A stretch of 42,364 nucleotides of DNA from an uncultured Spirochaetales bacterium (GTDB lineage Bacteria > Spirochaetota > Spirochaetia > Treponematales > JBGSOB01). The stretch spans positions 276-42,639 of the forward strand of contig CAZIEI010000009.1 of assembly GCA_964538705.1 (NCBI GenBank), written 5' to 3'. The notes beneath the pieces are model-generated. The model did not search any database. It was given only the letters and a program-made list of their open reading frames with translations, and was not told the DNA's origin. This document shows positions 9,354 to 38,317 of this stretch, piece after piece. Made by a program: the position numbers and the translations under genes. Each line of letters opens with the position of its first letter. Position 1 is the stretch's first letter.

Positions 9354-9431
9354 ACCCCCGGGAATGACAACAATTAGCGGTATGGCGGAATTCCCGGAGC
9401 ATCGCTGAATAAACGATTTAATCTCCGTTGA

Positions 9432-11920: not shown

Positions 11921-11984
11921 GATTTCACCTCCTTCAGGAACCGCGGTAGATACAACATGATAACTGCCCGTGACTCGGGCTTTA

Positions 11985-12875: not shown

Positions 12876-13012
12876 TAACCTTCATCCATGGTTCGGAAGC
12901 GAAATGGATTCCTGGAGACATGCTCGGGCTCCCTTCCTTTTCAGGAACGGTCGTATGGAAATCGGAGCTCGACGATAGTCGATCCCTCGACTTCAAAGCC
13001 CGAGGCCGATTG

Positions 13013-13026
13013 ACCGGCGCGCCGGT
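13013..13026. repeat. Perfect 14-nt GC palindrome ACCGGCGCGCCGGT followed by TTT on the + strand
   Basis: Read directly; it lies in the 420-nt non-coding region between the divergent GT17-like gene and the GT2 operon. Confidence 0.9.
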
Positions 13027-13100
13027 TTCGGTCGCAACGCCATTATAGCTAAGTGCAGGTAGGAAATCAATCGCGGAGTCGCGAGCTCGACCCGCTACGA

Positions 13101-13184
13101 GGATTGGATAACGAAACGCCGATTTGATCCGTGGATTCGGACCTGGACACCTAAAAGGCCGATCTCGAGGGTGGGGATTGGATA
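13101..13184 (+). repeat. 10-nt direct repeat GGATTGGATA (13101-13110 and 13175-13184), with a related GTGGATTCGG at 13131-13140
   Basis: Read directly; start-to-start spacing is 74 nt, upstream of the GT2 operon start. Candidate regulator binding sites; function unknown. Confidence 0.6.
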
Positions 13185-13295
13185 TCCGGGCTGCTCAACG
13201 TCCTCGGCGGCGAACGCCGTTTATTGATGCTTTCGATGATCTACGATACATTATACGCAAGCTATCCGAAGCAGGAACAGGTGCCCGAGGATCCG

Positions 13296-14276
13296 ATGGA
13301 AGACATATCCGTATGCGTACCCGTCTACAACTGCGCGCCCTTCATCGAGGCGACTCTCGAATCTATCCTGGCCCAGGACCGGCGGGGTTTCCGCGTCCTC
13401 GTGCAGGACAACGCGTCCACTGACGGGACGGCGGATATCGTTCGGGGAATGGCGGCCCGCGACGGCAGGATCGAGCTCCGCGTGAATCCAACGAACCTCG
13501 GGTATTGCGCGAATATCCGGACTGTCGTGGAACGGGCGGATACTGACGTAGTAGCGGTGTTTCACGGAGACGATCTCTATCTACCGGGGCTACTCGACGC
13601 CGAATACCGCGCGTTGAAGGAGAGCGGATCGGCGGCGGCGTTTTCCTCATACCGGCAGTTTTTCGGCAATCCCGGGAAGACGGCGGCCTATCCGGTCGGG
13701 CCCGATTTCGGCCCGGGCGCCGCTTGGTACGCAGCGGGGCTCGATGGTTATCTGCCGGTACTGATGTCCTGCGGCAATCCCTTCGCCTGCCCCACGCTCC
13801 TCACGTACAGGAGCATCCTCCTCGGGCTCGGTTCGTTCACGGACCGATATCCCTCGAACGAGGATCTCGACCTCTGGATCAAGTACCTCAAGGCCGGACA
13901 TAAGCTCGCCATCGTCAAGGACCGTCTATTCCTCTATCGGAGGAGCGCGGGCCAGGGATCCGCGTATTGGGACCGCCGCGACGAGCTGCCCGTCTATTTC
14001 GACCTCCTGGACCGGGAGGTCGTGCCCGGATCCGACGTGGACCCCGGCCTCATGGAAGGTTACCGTAGGCTAAAGGCGAAAGCGTTCCTGACGGCCGCCC
14101 TGAACGCGCGGAGGGCGGGGAAACGCGAAAAGGCCGCGGCTTTCATGGAGGCGTCGAGGGAACTCCGCAGGATGAGGCCGACGGACGGCGCCTGGTTCAT
14201 TTTCCAGAACTCCTTGGGCGCCTTCGCCGCCTATAAACGGCTCAAAGATCTAGCGAAGAGGCTGATGGCGCGATGA
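13296..14276 (+). CDS. GT2-family glycosyltransferase
   Basis: Motifs ISVCVPVYNCAPFIEATLESILAQ, QDNASTDGT and HGDDLY (DxD). Start placed at ATG 13296 (MEDISV..), preceded by GAGGA; the track ORF begins at TTG 13224 / ATG 13227 with no SD. Confidence 0.8.
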   Translation: MEDISVCVPVYNCAPFIEATLESILAQDRRGFRVLVQDNASTDGTADIVRGMAARDGRIELRVNPTNLGYCANIRTVVERADTDVVAVFHGDDLYLPGLLDAEYRALKESGSAAAFSSYRQFFGNPGKTAAYPVGPDFGPGAAWYAAGLDGYLPVLMSCGNPFACPTLLTYRSILLGLGSFTDRYPSNEDLDLWIKYLKAGHKLAIVKDRLFLYRRSAGQGSAYWDRRDELPVYFDLLDREVVPGSDVDPGLMEGYRRLKAKAFLTAALNARRAGKREKAAAFMEASRELRRMRPTDGAWFIFQNSLGAFAAYKRLKDLAKRLMAR

Positions 14277-15367
14277 GGATCCTCTACCTGACGACAGGGC
14301 TGTCTCTCGGCGGAGCGGAACGACAGCTCGCGCTCATGTCCGGCATCATGGCTGGGCGCGGGCACGAGGTGAGGGTCGTGAGCATGCTGCCCGCGCCGCG
14401 GGAGGGCGGCGTCGCGCTCGATCAGCGGATCGGCGCGTCGGATCTCGGGATGCGGAAGGGACGGCCGGGGATCGAGGCGATATTCAGGCTCGCAGGCGCC
14501 ATCGGCGAATTTCGCCCCGACGTGGTCCATTCCCACATGATTCACGCGAACATGCTCGCTTGCGCGACTCGTTCGGTATGTCGGATGAAACGTCTTGTCT
14601 GTACGGCGCATAGCGATTCCGAGACTTCCAGCCGATTAATGCTCTGGGCGTACAAGCGCCTCTCCAGGCGCTGCGACATCTTTACCCACGTGAGCCGAGC
14701 GGCCGCCGAGCGGTATGCCGGTTTGGGCATCCGCGGACCCGATGGTATCGTCCCCGTCCATAACGGGATCGAGTGGGAACGTTTCGCCTCCCCCGGGAGC
14801 GTTGATCGAAAGGCGGTCCGGAAGGAGTTCGGCATCCCCGACGACGCGTACGTGTTCGCGTTCGTCGGCAGGCTCGAACCCATCAAGGGGCCGGATATCG
14901 CCATCGAGGCGTTCCGTTCGCTCACCGGGGCCCGTCCGGGCGTTCACCTCCTCATGGTCGGCGACGGCTCCCTGGGGGCTTCCCTTAGGGGAGGCGTCTC
15001 CGATCCGAGAGTCCTCTGGGCCGGATCGACCGATCGCCCTGAACGGTATCTCCGCGCGGCCGATTGCCTCGTCATGCCGTCGCGGCACGAGGGTTTCGGT
15101 CTGTCCATCGTCGAGGCCATGGCGGTCGGGTTGAGCATCGTCGCGACCGATTGCGCGGGCCCGCGGGAAATACTCATGGACGGGCGGTACGGGCGCATCG
15201 TTCCCAGGGAGGCCCCGGCGGCCCTGGCGAGAGCAATGGCGGAATGCGTCAAGGAAGGGCGCTTGTCCCCGGAGCCGGGTCGAGAATATAGTAGAGGACG
15301 CTTCGACGCCGATCGGATCGCCGATGAATGGCTGAAGATCTATGGAAACCAGCGGGAGGGCTCGTGA
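14273..15367 (+). CDS. GT4-family (GT-B, Glycos_transf_1) glycosyltransferase
   Basis: N-terminus MRILYLTTGLSLGGAERQL and EX7E region EGFGLSIVEAMAVGLSIVATDCAGPREIL. ATGA overlap with the upstream gene. Confidence 0.85.
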   Translation: MRILYLTTGLSLGGAERQLALMSGIMAGRGHEVRVVSMLPAPREGGVALDQRIGASDLGMRKGRPGIEAIFRLAGAIGEFRPDVVHSHMIHANMLACATRSVCRMKRLVCTAHSDSETSSRLMLWAYKRLSRRCDIFTHVSRAAAERYAGLGIRGPDGIVPVHNGIEWERFASPGSVDRKAVRKEFGIPDDAYVFAFVGRLEPIKGPDIAIEAFRSLTGARPGVHLLMVGDGSLGASLRGGVSDPRVLWAGSTDRPERYLRAADCLVMPSRHEGFGLSIVEAMAVGLSIVATDCAGPREILMDGRYGRIVPREAPAALARAMAECVKEGRLSPEPGREYSRGRFDADRIADEWLKIYGNQREGS

Positions 15368-16659
15368 GCAAGAAGGAACTCTCATACGGAGGGATTTCCG
15401 TCATATTCGGCCTGAGTTACATCCTTTACCTGTTCGGGAATCCTATCGCACCGATGGCGTTCCTGACCGCCGCGAGCTTCTTGCTCTTATGGCTCCGAGG
15501 GCGCGGTTTGGATCAACGTAATTCCTTGATCCATCTCATGCTCTGGTCGATTCCGGCCTCTTTCAAGAACGTCCTGGGAGGGTCGTACGGGGAGCTGCCC
15601 ATTTCATGGTTCAATATCTGTTTTCTCGTCTTTTTAACGATCTGCGCAGTGTCATCGTTGAGGAACGGGGCTACCTTCGATAAACGCTTGATCGTCGCGG
15701 TCATGCTGGCGGCTTTCGTATCGATCACAATGTTCATATCCACCATCCTTTCGAGATTCGTGATGGATGGAATGAAGGATTACTTGAATGTCTTGATTTT
15801 CCTTGTGATCGCCGTGGTGGGTTTTGCATGGGATATCGATAGGGAGGAGTTCCGGCGATCCTGGATCGCATCAGCATGCGTCGCCTCGACTACGTTATTC
15901 GCGCAAATCCTTTGGTATAAGTTGACCGGGCGATCGGTCGGGTATATGACGGCGTTCTTTGAAAGAACCGCATACGCTTCAATTTTTACCGATTTTAGCT
16001 TTCTCTCGTTGTATTTCGCCGGAGCGGCCACCATGGCGCTATTCGCGGGAAGGTTGTGGGGCCTGGGAGCGGCAGGGTTGCTTCTTGCCGCATCGGCGTT
16101 GACTACCGCGAGGACGGGGTTATTCTCGTTTTTAGGCATCGTTCTCGTCATAATGCTCGGTAACACGATAAAAACCAGAAAAACGGCGAGCCTACTTGCA
16201 TTCGGAGTGGCGATTTCCGGAGCCGCGATCGCGATCATTTGGATCGCGCGATCGCGCGGAACGCAATCGCTATTCGCCGACAACGGACGCTTCGCGACAT
16301 ATAGAAGCGGGATACAGAATTTCATACATTACCCGCTATTCGGGACGGGCCTGGGAATCACCAATTACGGGTCATCACTGTATACACAAAGCGAATTCCC
16401 CCACTTCACGCTCCTGCAGCTCCTGGCCCAGACCGGCATCACCGGGACTGCGCCCTTCGTCGCGCTCATAATCGTGCTTATCCGAAAGGCTTGGCGTCAG
16501 AAGGATCTCCTGCCGGAATTGGCAACCATCCTGTGTTTCGTCGCGGGTTCGTTCTTCATCCCCGATATCATGAACTCGCGATTCTTCCCCTTAGCATTCA
16601 TCGGGCTCGGCGCTCCATGGAATTACAATGAGAATACTCCAGATCATAACCCTGTCTGA
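15364..16659 (+). CDS. O-antigen polymerase / ligase-family membrane protein (Wzy-like)
   Basis: About 10-12 TM segments with a larger loop before the last helices; located between GTs in a locus with Wzx and a PCP; lower GC, typical of wzy. Start set at GTG 15364 (GTGA overlap; strong SD GGGAGGG at 15354-15360). The track's ATG at 15328 has no SD. Confidence 0.65.
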   Translation: MSKKELSYGGISVIFGLSYILYLFGNPIAPMAFLTAASFLLLWLRGRGLDQRNSLIHLMLWSIPASFKNVLGGSYGELPISWFNICFLVFLTICAVSSLRNGATFDKRLIVAVMLAAFVSITMFISTILSRFVMDGMKDYLNVLIFLVIAVVGFAWDIDREEFRRSWIASACVASTTLFAQILWYKLTGRSVGYMTAFFERTAYASIFTDFSFLSLYFAGAATMALFAGRLWGLGAAGLLLAASALTTARTGLFSFLGIVLVIMLGNTIKTRKTASLLAFGVAISGAAIAIIWIARSRGTQSLFADNGRFATYRSGIQNFIHYPLFGTGLGITNYGSSLYTQSEFPHFTLLQLLAQTGITGTAPFVALIIVLIRKAWRQKDLLPELATILCFVAGSFFIPDIMNSRFFPLAFIGLGAPWNYNENTPDHNPV

Positions 16660-17707
16660 GCTCGGCGGCGCCCAGACCGTCGTCTCGAGCCTCTCGAACG
16701 CGCTGGTCAAGCTCGGTCATCGGGTGACGGTCATGTCGGATGTCGGCGGCAGGATGTGGACTGCACTCGACCAACGGGTAGACCGAGTTCCTTGCGCGGA
16801 TTTCAAGAGGGAGGTGGATCCCGTCCATGATTTCCGGGCGTTGCGCGCTATCAGGGAGATCATCAAGGCCGAAACGCCGGATATCATCCATTTACACTCC
16901 TCAAAGGCTGGCGCGCTGGGACGGCTCGCGCTCATCCCTCATGGGAGCCGGATTGTCTATACGGTCCATGGATTCGATAGTATTCTAAAGGCGAACAAGA
17001 AATTCCTATTTATCGAAAAAATCCTGAGGACAATGGCCGGGAAGATCGTGCCGGTGAGCGCGTACGACCAGAGAAATATGGCTGCACAGGGATTCAAGAA
17101 TACTATCGTCGTGGAAAACGCTTCGCTCGACATGGGTGGATCGAGGAGGCGGGACGTCGAGCTCGAGAGCATAAGGCGGCGATTCGCGTTCATCGTAATG
17201 TGTGTCGCGAGAGTCGGTCCTCAGAAAAGGGACGATTTATTCAAGGGGATCGCTTCGGCTCTCGCGCGCGAGGGGGCGGGTTTCGTATGGATTGGGAACA
17301 AGCTCCCGGTCGATGACGCCCCTCCCAATTGCTTTTTCCTTGGGGAAAGAGATAACGCCGGTGAATTGATACATTACGCGGACGCGTTCCTGTTACCGAG
17401 CAATTACGAGGGGTTGCCCATATCCATCCTCGAGGCACTCTCGTGCAGCGTTCCCGTAGTCGCGTCCTCGGTCGGAGCCATCCCGGATATCCTGGATGGA
17501 TGTAATGGGTTCGCTTGCGAAAATGCCATCAATGCATTCGCGGATCGCTTGGCGATGCTGATGAAGGATGATGCGTCGAGGGGGAAAATCAGATTGGCCG
17601 CCCGAACGACATGGGAGCGGCGTTTCGCTCTGGATTCCATGGTAGACGGGTATTTGAAAGTATATGAATCGGCGATCAAAGGAGAGGCGAGCCATGACGC
17701 AAAATGA
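16628..17707 (+). CDS. GT4-family (GT-B) glycosyltransferase
   Basis: N-terminus MRILQIITLSELGGAQTVV and EX7E region EGLPISILEALSCSVPVVASSVGAIPDIL. Overlaps the upstream gene by 32 nt. Confidence 0.85.
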   Translation: MRILQIITLSELGGAQTVVSSLSNALVKLGHRVTVMSDVGGRMWTALDQRVDRVPCADFKREVDPVHDFRALRAIREIIKAETPDIIHLHSSKAGALGRLALIPHGSRIVYTVHGFDSILKANKKFLFIEKILRTMAGKIVPVSAYDQRNMAAQGFKNTIVVENASLDMGGSRRRDVELESIRRRFAFIVMCVARVGPQKRDDLFKGIASALAREGAGFVWIGNKLPVDDAPPNCFFLGERDNAGELIHYADAFLLPSNYEGLPISILEALSCSVPVVASSVGAIPDILDGCNGFACENAINAFADRLAMLMKDDASRGKIRLAARTTWERRFALDSMVDGYLKVYESAIKGEASHDAK

Positions 17708-18533
17708 TAAGAACCGGGAATCACGGGATGAGACGACGGTAGGTCTTGCCGATCTGCTCGCCATCTTTATTAAGAAGCGCTGGCTCATCATTATCCCGAC
17801 TATCGTGAGCATTCTCGCCGTCGGGGGGATGTACGCGGCGGGTTTGATAGAGAAGCGCTCGAAAAGCCCGATGAATATTTTCGAGAAGAAGATGGAATTC
17901 ACCGTATACAATGATTATTCGGATTTCGTCGCATCGTACCTCTCATCTCCCGATCTTCTCTCTAGAGTTTTTATCGATTCAGAGAATCCGGATTCAGCTG
18001 ATGGGTTCGATGCCAAGTATCCCATCGTCAGAGTGGATTGGGAAACGAAAAAAAGATCCTTGAGCGAGAACCGGTCTGTGATCGTTCGGTCGCAGCCAGT
18101 CATCATCAACCGACGGAATGTATTGTTCAACCTGTCGGCTGAGAGCGAGGCGGCGCTCCTCTTGGCGGTCGAGCTAATAAACTCATCCCTGGACCGATAT
18201 ATTCAAGATTACAACGAGAAGATACAGATACGGTATCTCGAGCAGGTCAAATACGACGAATCCGAAAAGGCGGCCGTCGAAGCCTATGCGTTGTTCTTAG
18301 CGCAACAGCAGATAATCGTCATGCCTTTCAAGGAATCGGAAATCGCCGTTGCCCCAGTGCCTGTCGATCTCCCAAAACCCCGCACCCTCGTAACCATCGT
18401 CGCCGCCGTCTTTTGCCTCTCGATTTTCGCCGCCTTCATCGTGACTTGGCTGCAGGCCTTCGTGAAGAACGAGGACAACGTGAGGAAGCTCAGGGAAGCG
18501 CTCGGCCGCAAGCGAGGCAAGGGAGCTTCGTGA
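17694..18533 (+). CDS. Wzz-like polysaccharide co-polymerase (PCP-1-type chain-length determinant)
   Basis: Two-TM topology: N-terminal LADLLAIFIKKRWLIIIPTIVSILAVGGMYAAG and C-terminal TLVTIVAAVFCLSIFAAFIVTWL. The second TM is preceded by a Pro-rich APVPVDLPKP motif, with a ~200-aa soluble middle. Start trimmed to ATG 17694 (MTQNDK..). Confidence 0.55.
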   Translation: MTQNDKNRESRDETTVGLADLLAIFIKKRWLIIIPTIVSILAVGGMYAAGLIEKRSKSPMNIFEKKMEFTVYNDYSDFVASYLSSPDLLSRVFIDSENPDSADGFDAKYPIVRVDWETKKRSLSENRSVIVRSQPVIINRRNVLFNLSAESEAALLLAVELINSSLDRYIQDYNEKIQIRYLEQVKYDESEKAAVEAYALFLAQQQIIVMPFKESEIAVAPVPVDLPKPRTLVTIVAAVFCLSIFAAFIVTWLQAFVKNEDNVRKLREALGRKRGKGAS

Positions 18534-20032
18534 GGATACTCAGGTTCGCCCTGCTCAACCTGGGGCGTAACAAGGCGCGGAGCTTCCTCATCGGGACCAT
18601 CATGGCCGCCGGGACCGCGGTCGTCGTCCTCTCCGCGGGACTGATGGAGACGTCGGGCGAACGGCTCGAGGCCGCCTACGCGGGAGGGCTCACGGGCGAT
18701 TTCGCCGTCCTTCCCGCAACCGGTGCGGGATCGGGGCTGTTCGGCGACGAGACGCCCATCGTGAGCGACTACGCCGTCATGCCCGCCCTGGCGGGATATC
18801 GGGAGCTGAATGCCGCCCTGTCGACCATTGACGGGCTCGCCGATCGCGTCCCCGCCCTCGGCACCCAGGCGGTGCTCCAGGCAGAAGGATTCAACAGCCA
18901 GGTCTTCGCGTTCGGAGCCGAGGCGCGGGACTATTTCCGGGCGCTTCGCGGGATCAGCCTCGTCTCGGGCGCCCTCCCCGGAGTCGACGAGCGCTGGGTG
19001 CTCCTGAACGCGGCGAAGTGGAGGGAAGCAAACGGAGCCCTCGGCCGCGATCTCGTGATAGGCGAGACCCTCCAGCTGAGCGTCTTCTCAAACACGGGCT
19101 TCAAGCTCAGGCCGGTGCGGTTCGCAGGGGTATTCGAGTACGAGGCTCCGTCTTCTGTTTTCGAGAAGGTGGTTCTCTGCGATCCCACGACGGCCCGTTC
19201 GCTCTCGGGTTTCACTCTCGGATATTCGAGGGCCGATATCGAGGAATCGGCCGCTGGAGAAGCGGCGTCAGATGAGAATCCTGGCGGAATGAGCGCGGAT
19301 GATCTTGATGATTTATTCTCCGATGCGGCGCCTGTCCGATCGGGCGGCTCCGAAGCGGGAGGCGGCGCGGGGAGCGTCCTGGCCGACGTAGAGGCGCGGC
19401 TCGCCGATTCCGAAGCGCGGGAGGAGCTGACCCTGACGGACGATTCCGCGTGGAACTACGTCATCCTCCGCGCGAAGGCAGGGGTATCGAGGCGCGAGCT
19501 CCGGTCGGCGCTCAGGACCGCGCTCTCGGGATTCAGCGCCGGGTACCGTCTCCTCGGTTGGAAGAAGGCGGCCGGTATGTCCGCTCAGACGGTCTTCATC
19601 CTCCAGGCGTTCCTTTCGGGCGGGCTCGCCTTCGTCATGGCGGGCGTGGCCCTCATCCTCATGAACAGCCTCTTCATCGCCGTCATCGAGCGTACCAAGG
19701 AGATCGGGACGATGCGCGCCCTCGGCGCCTTGCGTTCCTTCGTGGCCCTCGAGTTCGCCGCGGAAGCCGGGCTCCTCGCCGTCGCCTCAGGCCTCGCGGG
19801 CGCTGCCATCGGACTGGCGATCATGCTCGCGATCAGGGCATCGGGCGGAATCGCGCTCGACAACGAGCTCCTCGCGACCCTGTTCGGCAGTCGCCGTTTG
19901 ATGCCCGCGATCGGCCCTGTCTCGGCGGCGCTCTCGGCAGGGCTCGTGGCCGCCGTGGCGGCGCTCTCGTGGATCGTGCCCGTGAGGCTCGCGTCGGGCA
20001 TCGAGCCCGGAAGGGCGATGAGAGAGGAATGA
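18530..20032 (+). CDS. FtsX-family ABC transporter permease (MacB/LolC/LolE-like, type VII), copy 1, with an acidic low-complexity insert in the periplasmic loop
   Basis: N-terminus VRILRFALLNLGRNKARSFL + TM1, a ~330-aa loop, then the FtsX signature IAVIERTKEIGTMRALGALRSFV and three TMs. GTG start 18530 overlaps the PCP stop (GTGA); the track ORF from 18413 is upstream read-through. Confidence 0.8.
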   Translation: MRILRFALLNLGRNKARSFLIGTIMAAGTAVVVLSAGLMETSGERLEAAYAGGLTGDFAVLPATGAGSGLFGDETPIVSDYAVMPALAGYRELNAALSTIDGLADRVPALGTQAVLQAEGFNSQVFAFGAEARDYFRALRGISLVSGALPGVDERWVLLNAAKWREANGALGRDLVIGETLQLSVFSNTGFKLRPVRFAGVFEYEAPSSVFEKVVLCDPTTARSLSGFTLGYSRADIEESAAGEAASDENPGGMSADDLDDLFSDAAPVRSGGSEAGGGAGSVLADVEARLADSEAREELTLTDDSAWNYVILRAKAGVSRRELRSALRTALSGFSAGYRLLGWKKAAGMSAQTVFILQAFLSGGLAFVMAGVALILMNSLFIAVIERTKEIGTMRALGALRSFVALEFAAEAGLLAVASGLAGAAIGLAIMLAIRASGGIALDNELLATLFGSRRLMPAIGPVSAALSAGLVAAVAALSWIVPVRLASGIEPGRAMREE

Positions 20033-21315
20033 GGGCCTACGCGATGATCGCGGCGCGCAACGTCGTCGCCCAGAGGAAGAAGTACTCGTTCATCGCCGCC
20101 GCGATGGTAATAGCCATGGCGATCATGACGCTCATCACGGGCGCGGCGAGTTCCATGATCGGGGCGATGAGCGACAAGGCGGCGCGCTACTTCTCCGGCC
20201 ACGTGACCCTCCTCGGGTACGACGGTTGGGAGGTAGGGCTCCGCGATCCTCTCGCCGTCATCGCGCGACTCGGCAGCGCGGGAGGAGCGCTCCGGGGAGC
20301 CGCGCCGCGGTCGGTCTCGTACGAGACGGAAGCGAAGCTCTACTTCAACGGCAATTCGATGCGCCAGCGGCGGCTCATCGGGGTGGACTACTCGTTCGAG
20401 AAGTCGGAATTCGAGCGCATGCGCTTCCTAGCGGGCGACGCTTCGGGGCTCGCCCGCGCAGATGGCATCCTCATCAGCGCGGAGGCCGCCCGGGTGCTCA
20501 AGGCGGGGCCGGGCGACGACGTGACGCTCTTCATCACGACGAAGTCAGGGCAGAACAACCTGGCCGTCTTCGTCGTCTCAGGCGTATTCGACGAATCGGC
20601 AATCTTCGGCTACGCGTCTTACGTCGACAGGAGGGCGCTCAACGAGGCCATGGGAACGGACCCGGACCTCGTCACGGAGCTCGCGCTCTTCGCGCGGACC
20701 GGCGTGGATTCGGGCGCCGCCGAATCGGCGGTGCGGAAGCGCGCGGCGTCCTGGCTCCCTCTCATGGACCCGATCCGTTCGAAGGACGAGCTCTCGAACT
20801 CGATACGCGCGAACGTCGGGTACCACCTTCCGGTCATCGCGGTGGACGCTCACTTGAAGCAAGTGCGCGACATAATCGGGGCCTTCCTCGCGGTAACGTA
20901 CGTCGTCCTCGTGGTGTTTCTGGTCATCATAGCCGTGGGCATTTCCAATACTATCAGGATCCTCGTGCGGGAACGGACAAGGGAGATAGGCGCGATGCGA
21001 GCACTCGGCGCCGCGAGGCCGGCCGTGGCGGGGCTCTTCCTCTTGGAAACGCTCTTTCTGACGGCGGCGAGCCTCGCGACCGGTTTGGCGCTGGGATGCC
21101 TCGCGCTCGCGGGATTCTCCGCCATCGACCTGGGGTCGGTGCAGGGCGCGGCGATGTTCCTGGAGAAGGGCCGCGTCCGCTTCCAGCTCGATACGGGCCT
21201 CCTGGCCCTTAACGCCGCCATCATCACGGCGATTTCGCTCCTCGCGTCGGCCGGACCGGCGCTCAAGGCCGCTCGAACGGAACCGGCGCTCGCGATGGGT
21301 ACGGGGGCATCATGA
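20029..21315 (+). CDS. FtsX-family ABC transporter permease (MacB/LolC/LolE-like), copy 2
   Basis: N-terminus MRAYAMIAARNVVAQRKKYSFIAAAMVIAM (TM1), a large loop, then ILVRERTREIGAMRALGAARPAV and three TMs. ATGA overlap at 20029-20032. The track ORF starting at 19450 is an R/G-rich read-through overlapping copy 1. Confidence 0.8.
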   Translation: MRAYAMIAARNVVAQRKKYSFIAAAMVIAMAIMTLITGAASSMIGAMSDKAARYFSGHVTLLGYDGWEVGLRDPLAVIARLGSAGGALRGAAPRSVSYETEAKLYFNGNSMRQRRLIGVDYSFEKSEFERMRFLAGDASGLARADGILISAEAARVLKAGPGDDVTLFITTKSGQNNLAVFVVSGVFDESAIFGYASYVDRRALNEAMGTDPDLVTELALFARTGVDSGAAESAVRKRAASWLPLMDPIRSKDELSNSIRANVGYHLPVIAVDAHLKQVRDIIGAFLAVTYVVLVVFLVIIAVGISNTIRILVRERTREIGAMRALGAARPAVAGLFLLETLFLTAASLATGLALGCLALAGFSAIDLGSVQGAAMFLEKGRVRFQLDTGLLALNAAIITAISLLASAGPALKAARTEPALAMGTGAS

Positions 21316-22103
21316 AAGCGATCAGAATAGCCGCGTTCGCGTTCGCCTGCGCGGCGCTCTCGGCGCGAAGCGCGGCGGTCTCGGCGCAAAACGGGAAAGA
21401 CGCTCCGGCGAAGCTCCTCGCGGCCGTCGACGATCTCCTCACCTTCGACGCCGAGGACCTCTCGGCGGAGATCCGGGTGCAGCAATCGAGCCCCGGAGGC
21501 GGAACGTCCACGACGGTCGCCGCGCTATTCAGGCGGGACAGGAAGGGGCAGTACCTGATCCTCGTCCTCGAGCCCGAGATCGACAAGGGCAAGGGCTACC
21601 TCAAGATGGACGACTCGGTCTGGCTCTACGATCCTGTGGGCAGGCGGTTCACCTTCTCGAGCGCCAAGGAACGCTTCGAGGGAACGGGCGCGAGCAACTC
21701 CGATTTCTCGGGATCGACGCTCGCGAAGGATTACCGAGTCGCGGCCTCCAAGCGCGAGAAGCTCGGCGCCTACGAATGCGACGTGCTAGACCTCGAGGCG
21801 CTGAACGACCGCGTCGCCTACCCCAAGAAGCGCGTATGGGTCTCTACGGACGGTCTCCTCAGGAAATACGAGGACTACAGCCTCTCCGGAAAGCTCATGA
21901 GGACGACGGCGATCCCGGCGTATCAGAAGAAGGGCGCCACGCAGGTTCCCTCGACTCTGGTGGTGCTCGATCACCTCAAGTCGAAAGTCGTCAACGGGAA
22001 GACCCAATACGAGAGGACGACGGTGACCCTCAGCAAGATTTCCCTCGAGAAGCTCCCCGACATCATGTTCACGAAGGAATATCTCGAGAAGGTGAACCGA
22101 TGA
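21312..22103 (+). CDS. Periplasmic LolA-like 'outer membrane lipoprotein-sorting' family protein
   Basis: Signal peptide MKAIRIAAFAFACAALSARSAAVSA. The body pattern (..LLAAVDDLLTFDAEDLSAEIRVQ.., ..GKGYLKMDDSVWLYDPVGRRFTF.., ..SNSDFSGSTLAKDY) fits the LolA_like family as I recall it. ATGA overlap. Confidence 0.7.
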   Translation: MKAIRIAAFAFACAALSARSAAVSAQNGKDAPAKLLAAVDDLLTFDAEDLSAEIRVQQSSPGGGTSTTVAALFRRDRKGQYLILVLEPEIDKGKGYLKMDDSVWLYDPVGRRFTFSSAKERFEGTGASNSDFSGSTLAKDYRVAASKREKLGAYECDVLDLEALNDRVAYPKKRVWVSTDGLLRKYEDYSLSGKLMRTTAIPAYQKKGATQVPSTLVVLDHLKSKVVNGKTQYERTTVTLSKISLEKLPDIMFTKEYLEKVNR

Positions 22104-23443
22104 TCGGGGGAATCGCCGTTGAGGCGGGGCGGCTCCCGCGAGCCAGGGCGCTCGCGCTCATCGCGGCGCTCATCGCGGGCGTCGCGGGTCGTGCGCCTGC
22201 GGAGGAGCCGGCTCCGGCAGCGGACGAAACGCCCGCCGTCTCCGCTGAGGAAGGCCTGGACGGGCTCTTCGATGAGCCCGCGGGTTCAGCCGAGGATGGC
22301 GACGACGTCCAGGGGCCGGCGGACGGGAAGCCAGCGGAAGACGGTCAGGCCGCGGGAGACGGCGAGGGCGGTACCGTGCTCGATCGGCTCAAGGAGAAAA
22401 AGGGGATCAACCTCCGCGGTTCGTTCTACTCTTCCGCGGGCGTGACCTGCGGATGGACGGACGTCCCCGATTTCAACGACCTCTCGAACGGATTTTTCTA
22501 CCAGCCCGGGGCGAGCATGGAGGCGCTTCTCGGCATCGACGCGAGCCCCGACCCGGACTTCCGCTTCTACACTCAGGTCGGCGCGCGCCTGGGATCGGAA
22601 TTCTCCTTCACGGAGTTCTACCTCAAGGAGCTCTTCGCGGACGTATCGCTCGGAGATATCGCCCTGCTCCGCATCGGGCAGAGCAAGGTCTCGTGGGGGA
22701 ACGGAAGGATCTTCTCTCCCGCCAACCTCGCGTCATGGGCGGACGGGACGGTGAACGCCCGGCTCGCCTTCCCCACACTGCTCGGCGGGCTCACGGGGAT
22801 CATCGCCGCCAACACTTCGCTTTATGACGAGCCGAGCCTCGAGGCGCTCTATTCCGCCGCCAAGCTCGACATCGTGCTGGGCCGAGCGCAGCTCTCGGTC
22901 ATGGGCGGGGCCCAGATGAACCTCGGCGCGAGGGCGGCCATGAGCCTCAAGACGGTGGTCCTGGGCGTCGACCTTACGGGCGAGGCCTCGCTCGGATACA
23001 AGGACGTCGGGGGCGGAGCGTATTTTCCCGCGGCCATGGCGGGCTTCTTCAAGGAGTGGAAGGGCCCGGGGATCATCCTTAACGCCGAGTACCTCTTCGA
23101 TTCGGAGCGATACGTCCTCTGGACGTCCGATCCGGTCAATTACGAGAAGGCGGGATACAACCACGCCGCCTGCCTCCAGTTCGCCTGGTCCAACGTCTTA
23201 GGCGACCTCGATTTCGGCTTCCGCTGGGCGCATTCCTTCACCGAGGCTTCGGGAAGCGCGCAGATCGGGTTCAGCCATCCGCTCTGGAACCACGTCAAGC
23301 TCAACCTCGCGTTCCCGGTGAACTACGGGCTTAACAGCGCGTACTATCAGGAGCGGTTCGAGGAGGACGACGAGCGGGCTTCCTTCCTCTCGGCCTTCGG
23401 CTTCGGCGCCGGCGTCGGCATCGGGATCTCGGCGGAGTTCTGA
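22100..23443 (+). CDS. Secreted protein, predicted outer-membrane beta-barrel, with an acidic N-terminal linker
   Basis: Signal peptide (..ALALIAALIAGVAGRAPA/EE), a ~70-aa E/D/G/A/P linker, then alternating hydrophobic beta-strand-like segments rich in G/Y/F/N. It ends ..GIGISAEF (terminal Phe, typical of OMP beta-signals). ATGA overlap at 22100; the track ORF from 21776 is read-through. Confidence 0.5.
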   Translation: MIGGIAVEAGRLPRARALALIAALIAGVAGRAPAEEPAPAADETPAVSAEEGLDGLFDEPAGSAEDGDDVQGPADGKPAEDGQAAGDGEGGTVLDRLKEKKGINLRGSFYSSAGVTCGWTDVPDFNDLSNGFFYQPGASMEALLGIDASPDPDFRFYTQVGARLGSEFSFTEFYLKELFADVSLGDIALLRIGQSKVSWGNGRIFSPANLASWADGTVNARLAFPTLLGGLTGIIAANTSLYDEPSLEALYSAAKLDIVLGRAQLSVMGGAQMNLGARAAMSLKTVVLGVDLTGEASLGYKDVGGGAYFPAAMAGFFKEWKGPGIILNAEYLFDSERYVLWTSDPVNYEKAGYNHAACLQFAWSNVLGDLDFGFRWAHSFTEASGSAQIGFSHPLWNHVKLNLAFPVNYGLNSAYYQERFEEDDERASFLSAFGFGAGVGIGISAEF

Positions 23444-23450
23444 GGACGGC

Positions 23451-24152
23451 ATGGTAGCGAAAAGCCCCCCGCTCATCGATCGCGTCGGCGGCAGCTCGGT
23501 CGCCGAGACGATCACCGCGCTCCACGGGATTTACCTCGAGGCGGATGCCGCGACCGCGCGCTTCTCGCTCATGAGCGGCATCTCCTGCTCGTCCGACTGC
23601 GGAGGCGTCTGCTGCAAAGGCTTCGAACCCGACGTGACCGAGGCGGAGGCGCTGTATCTGGCCGCTTGGATCATCGAATCGGGAGCGGACCCGGAAGCGG
23701 CGTTTCCGCGGGGCGCCGCTGACGGCGAGTACCGACCGCCCGATGGAACGGGCTGCCCCTTCTGGGATCGGTCCGGTTCGGGGCGATGCGGGGTCTATCC
23801 CGGACGAGGTCTCATATGCCGCCTCTTCGGGTTCGCCGCGCTTCGCGGGGCGGACGGGGAGAAGAGCTTCGCTCTCTGCTTCGCGATGGATCGGAACCAC
23901 ACGGGACCGCGGAAATGGCGAGAAGGAGATAGCGACTTTTTCGAGATCGCCGACCCTCCCGTCATGGCGGACTACGGCGCGCGCGTCGAGGCGCTTTCGC
24001 CGGGGGGAGGGCGCGAGGGCCTGGGCGGAGCCGTGGCGAAGGCGCTCGCGAAGCTGACGCTCATCCTCAGGTTCGGGGGAAGTCCGGGGAACGACCCGGG
24101 CGGCGAGGGTCCGCTCTCAGGAGGGCTCGGACCCGCGAGCGGCGCGGCGTAG
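23451..24152 (+). CDS. YkgJ-family cysteine-cluster protein (putative Zn/Fe-chelating domain, CxxCxxCC type)
   Basis: Motifs CSSDCGGVCCKGFEP, GCPFWD and RCGVYPGRGLICRLFG. The 3' end overlaps the convergent downstream gene by 36 nt. Confidence 0.6.
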   Translation: MVAKSPPLIDRVGGSSVAETITALHGIYLEADAATARFSLMSGISCSSDCGGVCCKGFEPDVTEAEALYLAAWIIESGADPEAAFPRGAADGEYRPPDGTGCPFWDRSGSGRCGVYPGRGLICRLFGFAALRGADGEKSFALCFAMDRNHTGPRKWREGDSDFFEIADPPVMADYGARVEALSPGGGREGLGGAVAKALAKLTLILRFGGSPGNDPGGEGPLSGGLGPASGAA

Positions 24153-25682
24153 GGCCGCGGCGATCCTTCCTAAGGGGCCTTTGGGAAGGAGCTCCCGCGC
24201 TTCCTCGAGCGGATTGCGGAATGTCCGTCTCGCGAGGTCGAGGTCTTTTTTACCGCCTCCGGCCTCCCTCACGGCGGCTTCGAGCCTCCGTTCGGTCTCT
24301 TCCGCGATGAGGAAGACGTCTCTCGAGATCCCTTCGTCCGATTCGATCCCCGCGTAGAGCGCGCGAAGCGCTCCTGCGGCCTCTATCGCCGCGGAGGCGA
24401 GGACGAAAGCCGACCGCTCCGCTTCCCAACCGCGCCTCCCCGAGTATTCGGTCTTGGACTTTTCGAGCGAGGCCTTCGCGCAGTCGAGGAAGGCGTACAC
24501 GCGGTCGTAGCGTTCGGCTGCGATTCGATGGAACGGCTTAGGGTCGCCACGCGGATCCAGCGGGCTCGTTCGGCGCGGCGTTTCCTCTCCCTCGGGAGCG
24601 CTTTCGCGGGCGAGGACGAGACGCCAGGCTTCCTCGAGGTCCCGATAATACGAGATCATCGCTTCCTCGGAATCGGCGGAGGACGCGGGACCGAAGGAGG
24701 ATCGGACGAATTCGCGGAGATCGCGTGGGGAAGAGAAACATGCGCGCGAGAAGGCCCAGGCGTTGGCGTCCGGCCGGTCGACGAAGCGCGATGGCATGCG
24801 GAGCTCCGCGCCGTCGAAGCCCATCGATACGGCATGCTCGACGTCCGCGCTTACGAGCGACGGCAGGAGGGGGGGCTGGATCCCGAACGCCCGTTCGTCG
24901 CCGTAATCGAGCAGGATCGCCGCGCTCCCGCCGCCGACCGCCTTCCATCCCTGAAGGGCATCACGGAGCGTCGCGCTTCTGAACGGTGCGTTGCGTTCGC
25001 AGGTCGCGTCGCCGAGGGCGTGGCCGCGGCAGCGTCTCCTGTCGTCGATGACGAGCCTGAGCCCGTGGAGCGCAGCCGCTTCCGGCCCTTCGGATGCCGA
25101 TCGGGCCGCGTCCACTATGCGCGCCGCCGTCTCGGGATCGCAGAGGATCGCGGTGCCTGGACGCGCGCCGCTTTGGGCTTCCGCCGAAAGCCGCTTGATC
25201 AGGTCGGCGGGCTCCTCGTCCTCGTTACGATCGCTCTCCGAGCCCTCCGTAGCGATGGCGGAGAAGGCCCGCGATTCCGCGCGCTCGACGAGGTCGCCCT
25301 CGGCGTCCGAGGCGAAGACGGCGATTCGCTCGCGGATCGCCGCTATCCTGCGTGCGCTCGCCTTGTCGAATGCGGGCCCGCCCGTACGGAGTTCCGCGTT
25401 CCCGAAGGGGAGAACGAGGCCGGAGGCCTCGAGGAAATCGTAGATCGCCCAGGGCAATGCGTCGAGAGAATCCGAGAAGATCTCTATGCGATGGGGCGAC
25501 CTTCGCCACGACCAGGCATGGTCCGGGCCCGATCCGAAATTGAGGATGGCGACGGGATCGTCGCCGTCGGAGGGGACGGCGGCGATACGGACGCCGAGTA
25601 GGGCGAGGCCCCGCCCGAGCGACGCGGCGGCGGCGACGACCCGCGGGCTTTCATCGGCCGTCTGGATGGTCCAAGATTCCAT
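24117..25682 (-). CDS. Hypothetical cytoplasmic protein (521 aa), no family confidently recognised
   Basis: Strong G/C third-position bias in this frame across the whole ORF (checked codon by codon), and a balanced amino-acid composition. The antisense + ORF (24528..25601) is R/G-rich. Start set at ATG 25682 (MESWTIQT), 14 nt after the GGDEF gene's stop; the track's 25700 is a TTG. Confidence 0.6.
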   Translation of the reverse strand: MESWTIQTADESPRVVAAAASLGRGLALLGVRIAAVPSDGDDPVAILNFGSGPDHAWSWRRSPHRIEIFSDSLDALPWAIYDFLEASGLVLPFGNAELRTGGPAFDKASARRIAAIRERIAVFASDAEGDLVERAESRAFSAIATEGSESDRNEDEEPADLIKRLSAEAQSGARPGTAILCDPETAARIVDAARSASEGPEAAALHGLRLVIDDRRRCRGHALGDATCERNAPFRSATLRDALQGWKAVGGGSAAILLDYGDERAFGIQPPLLPSLVSADVEHAVSMGFDGAELRMPSRFVDRPDANAWAFSRACFSSPRDLREFVRSSFGPASSADSEEAMISYYRDLEEAWRLVLARESAPEGEETPRRTSPLDPRGDPKPFHRIAAERYDRVYAFLDCAKASLEKSKTEYSGRRGWEAERSAFVLASAAIEAAGALRALYAGIESDEGISRDVFLIAEETERRLEAAVREAGGGKKDLDLARRTFRNPLEEARELLPKGPLGRIAAALRRAARGSEPS

Positions 25683-25696
25683 GGAACGGGCCCGTC

Positions 25697-26836
25697 TCAA
25701 GAGCGGAGGTAGGAGGTCTCGTCCGCGAGGCTCACCTTGTTGCGCCCCGCCGACTTGGACATGTAGAGTGCTTTGTCCGCCCGATCGATAACCGATTTCC
25801 CCGTGATATCCCGGGCGGCGTCGTACTGTGCGACACCGAGGGACATTGTGATGGAGAGCGAGAGGCCTTCGTATTCGAGCACGAAGTCCTGGATCGCCAC
25901 GCGGATGCGCCCGGCAATGAGGCCCGCGTCGTCGATGTTCGTGTCGGGGAGGAGGACGACGAATTCCTCTCCTCCGTACCGAGCCGCGAGGTCGTTGGAG
26001 CGGATGACGGATTGGACGATCTTGGCGACCTGCTTGAGGACTGCGTCGCCGCAGGAATGCCCGTAGGTGTCGTTGAATTTCTTGAAGTAGTCGATGTCCA
26101 TCATGATGACGGAGAGCGGGAGGCCCGATGCCACGGATTGCTCCATGCGTTCGAGAAGCACCGTGTAGAAGTAGTGCTTCATGCGGAGCTTGGTCATCAT
26201 GTCCGTGGTGGTCATCTCGAAGAGGAACGCGTTGTTTATTGCTATCGCCGCGAGCACCGCGATGTTGAGCACGTATTCCTTTTCGTACTCCGTGAAGACG
26301 TCGGTCTCGATCTGCTCGCCGAGGACGATGATGCCGTTGATGGCGCCCTTGGCCTTGAGCGGGACGATCAGGGTGGGTTCCAGTCCCGCGAGGGAGTCGA
26401 GGCCCTCGAAGGAACCGAGCTTCGAGCGGACGTCCTCCATGGTGTAACAGGCGTAATCCTGCTGGAAGAGGCGGATGAGAGGGTGCTCCTCATCGATGTG
26501 GTACTCGATGTCATGCGCGAGCTCGAAGCCCTTGTAATTGCGGTGGAGGGTGAAGACGGGCGAATCCAGCCCCTTCTTGGCGAAGAGCCCCGCCTTGAGG
26601 ACCTTCATCTGCCCCATGATGGTGTAGAGGATGGAGTCGATGAGAATGTTGTAATCCAGGGTGGAGTTGAGGCTCTTCGATATCTCGAGGAGTTGCTTGA
26701 GGTCGAATATCTGCTTCTCGTAGGCGTCACAGAGGCTCTGGATAGCCTCGTCACCGACGGCCGCCGGGGAAGCGTCATCGAATAGGCCCTCGCTGACGGG
26801 CTCGCCTTCTTCCGAGGGCTTCTTGTCTTCTTCCAT
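25697..26836 (-). CDS. Diguanylate cyclase: N-terminal GAF-like sensor domain + GGDEF domain with intact I-site
   Basis: Active site RYGGEEFVVLL and RxxD inhibitory site (RSND) five residues upstream. Also DIDYFKKFNDTYGH, and a GAF-like region (LKQLLEISKSLNSTLDY...). Start at ATG 26836 (MEEDKK, preceded by GGAAGACGG); alternative 26884. Confidence 0.85.
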   Translation of the reverse strand: MEEDKKPSEEGEPVSEGLFDDASPAAVGDEAIQSLCDAYEKQIFDLKQLLEISKSLNSTLDYNILIDSILYTIMGQMKVLKAGLFAKKGLDSPVFTLHRNYKGFELAHDIEYHIDEEHPLIRLFQQDYACYTMEDVRSKLGSFEGLDSLAGLEPTLIVPLKAKGAINGIIVLGEQIETDVFTEYEKEYVLNIAVLAAIAINNAFLFEMTTTDMMTKLRMKHYFYTVLLERMEQSVASGLPLSVIMMDIDYFKKFNDTYGHSCGDAVLKQVAKIVQSVIRSNDLAARYGGEEFVVLLPDTNIDDAGLIAGRIRVAIQDFVLEYEGLSLSITMSLGVAQYDAARDITGKSVIDRADKALYMSKSAGRNKVSLADETSYLRS

Positions 26837-27026
26837 CCGTCTTCCGCTGGGGAGCATTATAACCCTTCCCCGGCGGTCTGTCATGCCCGGTTCCGGGAGG
26901 ATTACCGGGCCCTATTCGGAGCGCCTGAGGCGGCCTGCCGGCCTGTCCATAGGTTCTTGGGCCTTCCGCGGGCGGTCCGCGGCGGTCGCCACCGGCGAGT
27001 CGGCGGCTGCACGGTCCGGACGGCGA

Positions 27027-38206: not shown

Positions 38207-38317
38207 CGCCCTGAAGGGTAAGCGCTCCGCCGGGCTTTGGGAAGGGGCGGGGAGCCTCCAGGAATGCCTAAAGACCCGGCTCCCGGGGCCGATATTCAGT
38301 CAAGAGGAGTACGAAGA

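Follow-up and report, generated by a model that had tools for sequence, protein, structure and literature searches.

A conserved FtsX–FtsX–LolA-like–barrel gene set joined to a Wzx/Wzy-type glycan operon in an uncultured spirochaete

The stretch of DNA considered here (hereafter the window, 42,364 nucleotides) belongs to a high-GC bacterial contig (GC about 0.6-0.68; CAZIEI010000009.1) from an uncultured Spirochaetales bacterium. It contains a set of four genes, which we call the cassette, coding for two FtsX-type permeases (FtsX1 and FtsX2), a LolA-like carrier and a predicted outer-membrane (OM) β-barrel. The cassette ends a run of nine genes (13296-23443), all on the + strand and chained to one another by overlapping stop and start codons: a GT2 glycosyltransferase, a GT4 glycosyltransferase, a Wzy_C protein, another GT4, a Wzz-like protein, FtsX1, FtsX2, the LolA-like protein of family PF17131 and the barrel (Table 1). 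The junctions are ATGA at 14273, GTGA at 15364, an overlap of 32 nt at 16628 and one of 14 nt at 17694, followed on the side of the cassette by GTGA at 18530 and ATGA at 20029, 21312 and 22100. An initial annotation had described this continuous + strand run, and every limit and junction agrees with it on re-check; some gene callers place the start of FtsX2 12 nt later, at residue 6. It had also considered that an internal promoter or terminator might uncouple the genes from 18530 onward from the glycan genes, and a scan of the window detected no promoter-like or terminator-like site between 17233 and 24227. The first + strand terminator-like hairpin is at 24227-24244, past a CxxCxxCC gene which follows the barrel gene.

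Table 1. Features of the window discussed in the text (TM, transmembrane segment; aa, residues; positions are those of the window).
Feature	Position	Strand	Basis
FtsX1, type VII ABC (ATP-binding cassette) permease, MacB/LolCE-like, with an acidic insertion	18530..20032	+	Pfam FtsX 1.3e-12
LDDLF motif in the periplasmic loop of FtsX1, aa 259-263	19304..19318	+	within acidic insertion
ERTKEIGTMRALGA, major coupling helix region of FtsX1, aa 387-400	19688..19729	+	position between TM2 and TM3
FtsX2, second type VII ABC permease, MacB-like periplasmic core	20029..21315	+	Pfam FtsX 1.9e-16, MacB_PCD 4.3e-7
ERTREIGAMRALGA, coupling motif of FtsX2, aa 315-328	20971-21012	+	position between TM2 and TM3
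Periplasmic LolA-like carrier, PF17131 (also TP_0789-like)	21312..22103	+	Pfam 1.2e-34, 120.1 bits vs cut-off 30
Predicted OM 18-stranded β-barrel, 447 aa	22100..23443	+	AlphaFold2 model, Foldseek, signal peptide, C-terminal Phe
LDGLF motif in the N-terminal periplasmic tail of the barrel, aa 53-57	22256..22270	+	F57 at least 90% conserved
Wzz/PCP-like (PCP, polysaccharide co-polymerase), 279 aa, 2 TM (aa 16-52, 228-258)	17694..18533	+	family alignment; last gene of the low-GC variable region
Wzy_C polymerase or ligase	15364-16659	+	Pfam 1.4e-10; 41.5 bits vs cut-off 31.7
GT2	13296-14276	+	Pfam 1.8e-25
GT4	14273-15367	+	Pfam 9.8e-32
GT4, second	16628-17707	+	Pfam 1.8e-22
Tandem MOP-family (Wzx-type) flippases, variable glycan region	7776-9353, 9432-11018	+	Pfam MatE both, Polysacc_synt second
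CxxCxxCC protein (PF03692, YkgJ-type, putative zinc/iron-binding)	23451..24152	+	Pfam 1.9e-5; starts 8 nt past the barrel gene

The two permeases score 48.3 bits (FtsX1) and 60.7 bits (FtsX2) with the Pfam model PF02687, whose cut-off is 25.5, while MacB_PCD is not detected by Pfam in FtsX1. A hydropathy scan gives four TM segments to each of them, with a loop between TM1 and TM2 of about 310 residues in FtsX1 and about 230 residues in FtsX2. Both carry the motif ERT[KR]EIG[TA]MRALGA between TM2 and TM3. In MacB, the TM2-TM3 segment is the major coupling helix, which touches the nucleotide-binding domain (NBD) (PMC5985334), and by analogy we infer that the coupling helices of FtsX1 and FtsX2 would also contact an NBD. 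The original description of two FtsX-type permeases with a coupling motif and a large TM1-TM2 loop is therefore borne out by the Pfam matches and the topology. The nearest solved relatives of FtsX1 are 5xu1, MacB, YtrF and LolF, with E-values of 4e-6 or weaker, and both permeases are far from all solved MacB/FtsX members (best E-value 2.7e-8). With the lolCE equivalog model TIGR02212, FtsX2 scores 51.9 bits and FtsX1 23.4 bits, far under the cut-off of 362.45. Considering these scores and the distance from the solved members, we do not class the permeases as LolCE.

The third protein of the cassette is matched in Pfam by PF17131 alone, and not by the canonical LolA family PF03548; one distant cluster of homologues matches both families. 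It also matches solved structures of the LolA superfamily, such as PDB 3buu (9e-14). It has a type I signal peptide and the comparison of 39 homologues reveals no conserved lipobox, from which we conclude that the carrier is soluble. The LolA-like pattern and the signal peptide that had been noticed in the sequence are both confirmed by these results. Homologues are numerous at 46-64% identity, and those that are named come from Spirochaetota. The PF17131 and LolA folds are lipid-binding half-barrels, and a function as a lipid carrier is predicted for this protein.

The product of the last gene of the cassette has no Pfam match. It has an N-terminal hydrophobic segment (residues 12-35) and its C-terminus reads ...ISAEF. 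The AlphaFold2 model built from an alignment of 76 sequences (pLDDT 81, pTM 0.76, core pLDDT >90) shows 18 strands across residues ~100-446, preceded by the signal peptide and by a disordered acidic tail (residues ~29-90). When this model is compared to the PDB with Foldseek, the matches are OmpU, OccK, OmpF, AlgE and a chitoporin (16-18 strands), with a probability of 1.0 and TM-scores of 0.4-0.5. The proposal of an OM barrel ending in Phe is in agreement with the 18 modelled strands and the porin-type matches. A word-indexed homologue search returned only the protein of the window and a relative at 87% identity, and the family could only be collected by exhaustive HMMER: it includes 255 cluster representatives, 114 of which at E<=1e-10, mostly 380-440 residues long. 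A few members are weakly matched by known families. The Pfam family DUF1302 (PF06980) matches 10 of 76 members at E<=0.1 (best 0.0012; the protein of the window is unmatched), Porin_O_P weakly matches 9 of 76, and Alginate_exp touches just one of 76. The protein is thus, as modelled, an OM barrel of no known family.

FtsX1 and the barrel have in common a short acidic motif, conserved in Spirochaetota loci, whose typical form is LDDLFsD. It was scored with the pattern [LIMFV][DE][DEGNSQ][LIMF]F, the expectation being taken from shuffled sequences. It is present in 46 of 54 FtsX1-type proteins (4.5 expected) and in 61 of 73 barrels (5.8 expected), in 58 of which it sits in the N-terminal tail. 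Among FtsX2-type proteins it is seen only once in 64 (4.0 expected), and never in 61 LolA-like proteins (1.6 expected). The tail of the barrel of Spirochaeta lutea (locus L090, 12367-13896) has three copies of the type DEDALFGG. That the motif is displayed at both ends, inner-membrane and outer-membrane, suggests that one partner binds to both, the soluble carrier being the obvious candidate; the LDDLF-type peptide may be a shared docking peptide for this carrier.

The distribution of the cassette was surveyed using one genome per GTDB species. Relatives of the carrier were found at 330 loci, and the best 80 of these were examined; among these 80, all those with a taxon name are from Spirochaetota, and they include Treponemataceae, Rectinemataceae, Spirochaetaceae, Salinispira, Sediminispirochaeta, Marispirochaeta and Gracilinema. 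In the 45 Spirochaetota loci with adequate flanks, which are the basis of the counts of gene order and of ATPase genes below, the FtsX-FtsX-LolA-like-barrel set is present in every case (45 of 45), with the two permease genes swapped in a few. There is a single locus per genome record, except for one metagenome-assembled genome (MAG) with two contigs. The cassette proteins of the closest relative (MAG GCA_964399285.1) are 87-95% identical to those of the window (88% for FtsX1), and those of a more distant relative 42-64%. The gene set at this locus is therefore a single example of an envelope module that is uncharacterised and widely conserved in Spirochaetota. Neither the cassette nor its link to Wzx/Wzy loci was found described in the literature, in line with the initial annotation, which knew of no description of this export arrangement for Wzx/Wzy pathways.

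The most constant feature of the surroundings of the cassette is the presence of glycan genes. The flanking genes of all loci were clustered and the recurrent clusters annotated with Pfam; the tally was made on the 37 loci flanked by 5 kb or more on each side, counting genes within 10 kb. At least one recurrent glycan gene was found in 35 of these 37 loci (a raw count), and at least three in 22. About 23% of the flanking genes belong to recurrent glycan clusters, a share that seems far above what would be expected of such families genome-wide. Over all loci, the most frequent are NAD-dependent epimerases (27 loci), GT4 (17), UDP-sugar dehydrogenase (15), WecA-like Glycos_transf_4 (15) and GT2 (12). 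A Wzz-like gene is found in 11 other loci, and in each of them it directly precedes FtsX1 or directly follows the barrel. WbaP-like Bac_transf, TagF-like, TagD-like, cytidylyltransferase, PMT_2, GT28, RmlD and weak Wzi-like proteins are also recurrent, and no match to Wza or Wzc was found by Pfam among the recurrent neighbour clusters that were scanned. The recurrence of the cassette beside glycan genes, which had been put forward as a check, is therefore observed. Its association with Wzx/Wzy genes specifically is seen only in two close relatives, where the genes GT2-GT4-Wzy-GT4-Wzz-like also precede the cassette; in loci farther removed, the glycan genes are of other kinds (WecA-like or WbaP-like initiating transferases, Wzz-like, weak Wzi-like, TagF/TagD-like).

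In a group of loci coming mainly from gut and rumen Spirochaetia MAGs (L035, L040, L045, L047, L055, L023 and L030), a conserved gene set flanks the cassette: it codes for a TagF-like glycerophosphotransferase, a cytidylyltransferase, a WbaP-like transferase and a UDP-sugar dehydrogenase, and also for a multi-TM protein of 850-980 residues that has a YidC/60KD_IMP domain. Such a set resembles a pathway for a teichoic-acid-like polymer, here in a diderm.

Regarding the glycan genes of the window, the two flippases are matched by MatE with 48.0 and 48.3 bits (cut-off 24.9), and the second one by Polysacc_synt with 39.5 bits (cut-off 28.2). The upstream region also contains, according to Pfam, more glycosyltransferases, a NeuB-type synthase, a thiamine pyrophosphate (TPP) enzyme, a HAD hydrolase and an epimerase. 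Neither Poly_export (Wza) nor BY-kinase (Wzc) is matched in the scanned open reading frames (ORFs) of the window, and no Walker A motif is found in its six frames, so that the reported absence of a Wza/Wzc-like gene in the 42 kb is borne out. The protein of 279 residues that precedes FtsX1 is itself without any Pfam match, the Wzz model included, and a single-sequence structure model of it (pLDDT 43.8) is unusable for its fold. It has N- and C-terminal motifs in common with a family of Wzz-like proteins of ~300 residues, and 9 of its 13 homologues match Pfam Wzz (best 5.6e-8). The "Wzz/PCP-like" name that it had been given is reasonable at the level of the family, and its two-TM topology agrees with it; it does not hold for the copy in the window taken by itself.

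The junction between the Wzz-like gene and FtsX1 is also a boundary in composition and in conservation. The GC content steps from 0.50, which is that of the Wzz-like gene, to 0.67 at 18400-18530; it is mosaic in the glycan region (0.42-0.65 over 7000-18530) and uniform from 18530 on (0.64-0.68). The identity to the close relative jumps from 38% for the Wzz-like protein to 88% for FtsX1, the glycan genes being 51-71% identical and the cassette proteins 87-95%. Despite this jump, the overlap of 4 nt between the two genes is retained both in the window and in the close relative. The jumps in GC and identity indicate that a variable glycan region abuts a conserved core; the variable region is probably exchanged horizontally next to a conserved export core, as in capsule loci. 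The + strand run of the glycan region is interrupted by a minus-strand pair, 11015-11920 (with a weak, sub-threshold similarity to GH43) and 11985-12875 (GT17-like). The lowest GC of the region is found in this pair (11015-12875) and in the gene of the second flippase (9432-11018, GC down to 0.42-0.44), which suggests that they are recent horizontal insertions.

A transporter of the MacB/LolCE type should work with an ATPase, and the initial annotation had pointed out that there is none in the window. As a matter of fact, no Walker A or LSGGQ motif exists in any of the six frames of the window, ABC_tran matches none of the 36 window ORFs scanned with Pfam, and tblastn of the cognate ATPase of relatives against the window returns nothing better than E 0.98, that is, no pseudogene remnant. 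The loci of the two close relatives are also devoid of NBD. The lack of an ATPase does not characterise the system. An ATPase of the LolD/MacB type (232-257 residues), with Walker A, LSGGQRQR and Walker B motifs, directly adjoins the cassette in 16 of the 45 loci: in 13 cases (12 if a near-duplicate genome is counted once) the gene is convergent past the barrel, in two it is co-directional past the barrel, and in one it comes before FtsX1. In Spirochaeta isovalerica and in a 3.97-Mb MAG, for instance, an ABC_tran gene of 232-234 codons is convergent just past the barrel gene. In S. lutea and in another contig (L091), the operon is complete, in the order ATPase-FtsX-FtsX-LolA-like-barrel. The claim that the system has no ATPase holds for the 42 kb of the window, and not for the cassette in general, for which the gene is adjacent in 16 loci and first in the operon in these two more.

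The other 29 loci are like the window, with no LolD/MacB-type ATPase within ~7-10 kb; a few of them hold unrelated ABC NBDs (27-34% identity) farther away. The coupling motif is found in 44 of 76 permeases (58%) without an adjacent ATPase and in 19 of 42 (45%) with one. That the coupling helix is kept in both permeases of the window argues that the ATPase is likely to be unlinked rather than dispensable. On this comparison of loci, the ATPase most likely belongs to the system as a rule, even though its gene often lies apart, and it would be encoded elsewhere in this genome. In the two loci with a complete operon (L090 14076-15188 and L091 14878-16233), a PlsC-type acyltransferase gene (PF01553) lies directly past the barrel gene, which hints at a glycerolipid cargo there; a PlsC-like acyltransferase past the barrel does not recur in the other 80 loci.

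We propose, with moderate confidence, that the cassette encodes the membrane-bound and periplasmic components of a type VII ABC machine, which would export a lipid-anchored glycoconjugate to the OM. This class of cargo is the most likely because the glycan neighbourhood is near-constant. In the mechanism that we envisage, the cargo would be a glycolipid or a lipid-linked polymer, built on undecaprenyl phosphate and flipped by Wzx, whose glycan the Wzy_C protein would polymerise or ligate under the control of the Wzz-like protein. A heterodimer of FtsX1 and FtsX2, driven by two copies of the ATPase encoded elsewhere, would then pass the lipid moiety to the LolA-like carrier, and the latter would bring it to the barrel, to be inserted or exposed at the surface. 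The LDDLF-type peptide, on the loop of FtsX1 and on the tail of the barrel, would dock the carrier at the loading and unloading ends. In this lineage, a variable Wzx/Wzy gene block would have been spliced onto the conserved export core. The anatomy of the trans-envelope route first suggested for this locus (an extractor-type permease pair, a LolA-like carrier and an OM barrel) is confirmed, whereas its components are not strict LolCE and LolA. A more ambitious version, which is possible but which we hold only tentatively, is that a so far unrecognised Lol-like pathway of spirochaetes (FtsX1/FtsX2, a LolD-type ATPase, PF17131 and a DUF1302-like barrel) delivers the products of Wzx/Wzy and other undecaprenyl-linked glycan pathways, as lipid-anchored glycoconjugates, to the OM by means of a carrier recruited at both membranes by the LDDLF-type peptide, and so plays the part that Lpt (for LPS) or Wza/Wzc (for capsules) has in Proteobacteria.

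Several points weigh against this proposal. It is the gene neighbourhood alone that points to the cargo, be it a glycolipid, a lipid-linked glycan or a glycosylated lipoprotein; moreover 35 out of 37 is a raw count that comes without a matched background rate for random spirochaete loci, and the two other loci have no recurrent glycan gene nearby. Pfam finds no initiating phosphoglycosyl transferase (Bac_transf or Glycos_transf_4) in the window, which also has no lipid-anchor enzyme. The Wzy_C model spans WaaL ligases and O-oligosaccharyltransferases as well, so that a role as polymerase is not separable from these. The contig, which is only 42.6 kb long, did not yield the NBD of this organism, and orthology is unreadable from identity in an ATPase subfamily with such strong conservation (70-83% identity across hundreds of clusters, and still 69-70% to Limnochordia proteins). 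Last, the docking role that the LDDLF-type peptide may have is deduced from the distribution of the motif.

Other explanations must be considered. It may be, although we regard it as unlikely, that the cassette is a lipoprotein route, either a general sorter or a dedicated exporter of surface lipoproteins that the barrel would flip, in which case the glycan genes would glycosylate these lipoproteins (the Wzy_C protein being PglL-like) or be unrelated. The combination of a heterodimeric FtsX pair and a LolA-superfamily carrier is like that of LolCDE-LolA, the cassette is widely conserved and present at a single locus per genome record (apart from the MAG with two contigs), Wzy_C also covers O-oligosaccharyltransferases, and spirochaetes show many surface lipoproteins, whose OM translocator is unknown. 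The Borrelia BBJ cluster has been read in the same manner (PMC13078400). However, the scores of 52 and 23 bits are very low compared to the 362 of the LolCE equivalog, the carrier belongs to PF17131 and not to PF03548, canonical Lol needs no barrel, and glycan neighbours in 35 of 37 loci would not be expected for a housekeeping sorter. The direct export of a polysaccharide, in replacement of Wzc/Wza, with the barrel as an AlgE-like channel, the permeases doing mechanical work and the LolA-like protein as an adaptor, seems distinctly unlikely to us. The fold match to AlgE, which could be taken in its favour, is generic to porins of 16-18 strands (TM 0.4-0.5), and Alginate_exp touches a single member of 76; no membrane-fusion protein (MFP) or periplasmic conduit like an OPX (outer-membrane polysaccharide export) protein is encoded, and the LolA/PF17131 folds bind lipid and are not channel-bridging adaptors. 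It is true that there is no Wza/Wzc in the window or in the recurrent neighbour clusters scanned, that the Wzz-like protein is an immediate neighbour, and that MacB-type pumps expel periplasmic substrates via an OM partner (PMC5985334).

Many FtsX/MacB systems act in antimicrobial resistance (PMC5985334), and DUF1302/DUF1329 genes have been linked to fatty ester use (10.1101/2020.07.04.188060), so the cassette could also be a MacB-type efflux, resistance or uptake system that lies beside glycan genes by chance, as the two loci without recurrent glycan neighbours would allow. We find this very unlikely, considering that the glycan neighbourhood is found in the 35 other loci and in several spirochaete families, that the overlap of 4 nt couples FtsX1 translationally to the Wzz-like gene, here and in relatives, and that 11 other loci also have a Wzz-like gene directly before or after the cassette. 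That the cassette runs without an ATPase in this lineage, as a decayed remnant or with another energy source, is hardly credible: there is no NBD in the 42 kb nor in the loci of the two close relatives, but the four cassette proteins are intact and 87-95% identical between the window and the closest relative, the NBD-coupling helix is conserved in both permeases, and the unlinked state is seen in 29 of 45 loci from many lineages, which relocation fits better than repeated loss. On the evidence of gene order, it is most likely that the missing ATPase is explained in this way, the "permease without ATPase" of the 42-kb window being a gene-order artefact rather than a mechanistic anomaly; the missing Wza/Wzc and the joining to a glycan operon stay noteworthy and are backed by the comparison of genomes.

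The export of a lipid-anchored glycoconjugate by such a machine can be compared to several known or predicted systems. LolCDE-LolA(-LolB) of E. coli also consists of a pair of paralogous 4-TM FtsX/MacB permeases whose periplasmic domains are large, a separate NBD (where it is encoded, in the case of the cassette) and a soluble carrier of the LolA superfamily. The permeases of the cassette are asymmetric, FtsX1 being the only one with an LDDLF motif, which recalls LolC: LolC alone recruits LolA. On the contrary, the permeases are under the LolCE cut-off, the carrier is of family PF17131 instead of PF03548, the OM end is an 18-strand barrel and not the lipoprotein LolB, the cassette lies in glycan loci, and the ATPase is unlinked in this genome. 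In Borrelia, BBJ23-BBJ29 is a computational prediction that includes a MacB-like permease, an ATPase, a LolA-like protein and an Omp85 barrel (PMC13078400). It differs from the cassette in having a single permease (BBJ27, proposed to be a homodimer) with the ATPase BBJ26 adjacent, where the cassette of the window has two permeases and no adjacent ATPase; in its barrel BBJ25, of the Omp85/BamA-TamA type, while that of the cassette is porin-like according to Foldseek; and in containing TPR proteins, outside any glycan context. A tblastn search of the carrier against plasmid records gave no Borrelia match at E<=1e-3, so we consider BBJ23-29 as analogous and not demonstrably orthologous.

Dedicated LolA-like proteins have also been described beside exporters of another kind. 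In Proteobacteria, sets made of DUF1302, DUF1329 (LolA/LolB-like), an RND protein (COG1033) and a BNR protein are cofit and have been proposed to export envelope components (10.1101/072470). As in the cassette, a protein of the LolA superfamily goes with an OM protein and an inner-membrane exporter, but the engine is an RND protein that uses the proton-motive force, not an ABC transporter, no glycan link is reported, and the similarity of the barrel family to DUF1302 is under any curated threshold. In aryl-polyene clusters, ApeL/ApeM/ApeN include a LolA-like protein beside an inner-membrane exporter, and the transfer of a specialised lipid to the OM has been proposed (PMC8253772). The likeness lies in the dedicated LolA-like protein being encoded next to the exporter. 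The latter is of the RND type, with a LolB-like partner, as opposed to an FtsX pair with a barrel, and the surrounding genes form a polyketide-lipid cluster instead of a glycan locus. The difference in exporter and partner also applies to Treponema pallidum TP0789-TP0790: TP0789 is the source of the newer name of PF17131 and adjoins the RND protein TP0790. We considered TP0789 as a possible member of such a cassette and rejected it, its neighbours being TP0790 and the Lpt genes TP0784-0786.

Wzx/Wzy capsule loci also have conserved export genes beside a variable glycan region, with MOP flippases, Wzy_C and Wzz-like proteins; the window differs from them by the lack of a Poly_export Wza and of a BY-kinase Wzc. 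Lpt (LptB2FGC-LptA-LptDE) is similar in concept, since there too a glycolipid is handled by an ABC extractor, a carrier in the periplasm and a barrel in the OM, except that the carrier of the cassette is a soluble LolA-like shuttle and not a bridge; no domain of the Lpt families (OstA/LptC/LptF/G) was found by Pfam in the window ORFs. DevBCA-HgdD of Anabaena, a MacB-type ABC exporter of heterocyst glycolipid (PMC5985334), is a precedent for a transporter of this type dedicated to glycolipid export. It relies on a membrane-fusion protein and a TolC-like duct, with no LolA-like carrier and no porin-like barrel. The closest published analogues of the cassette (BBJ23-29, ApeL/M/N and the DUF1302/DUF1329/RND/BNR sets) are all predictions or fitness-based proposals.

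Outside spirochaetes, an E. coli plasmid (NZ_CP060058.1, L088 4909-8743) and an Aliiroseovarius plasmid (L089 4539-9061) carry an ATPase, a single FtsX, a PF17131 protein and a secreted protein of 400-480 residues, next to genes for a ketoacyl-synthase, a FeeM-like N-acyl amino acid synthase and a crotonase. This suggests that a similar export module serves lipid biosynthetic clusters in these organisms. Alignment of the barrel family with the two secreted proteins by hhalign gives a common motif of ~40 residues, with a probability of 29% and 1%, respectively, so that homology to the barrel is only hinted at, not established.

Many spirochaetes lack classical LPS (lipopolysaccharide), and how glycolipids, surface glycans and surface lipoproteins are transferred from the inner membrane to the OM or to the surface of spirochaetes is largely unknown. 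The cassette is a concrete, Spirochaetota-wide candidate, with five testable parts and a peptide motif that predicts binding partners, and its cultivable carriers include Spirochaeta isovalerica, S. lutea and Gracilinema caldarium. It extends an emerging theme, in which LolA-like carriers serve particular envelope lipids and have their genes beside those that make these lipids, to glycan loci and to an engine that is ABC-driven and has a barrel of its own.

Regarding the genes that follow the cassette, the CxxCxxCC gene is found, among the loci, only in the closest relative (L008), and it probably closes the transcript, outside the conserved cassette. Convergent to the operon (24117-26884, - strand) are genes for a protein of 527 residues without Pfam match and for a GGDEF diguanylate cyclase, which are found at the same place in both close relatives (84-95% and 35-86% identity); elsewhere, this is the place where the convergent ATPase lies. 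A c-di-GMP enzyme as neighbour of a surface-glycan operon may have a regulatory role. Farther downstream, 32924-36313 codes for a protein of 1129 residues with weak TPR matches only, and nearby 38237-39010 codes for a DUF2259 predicted secreted protein.

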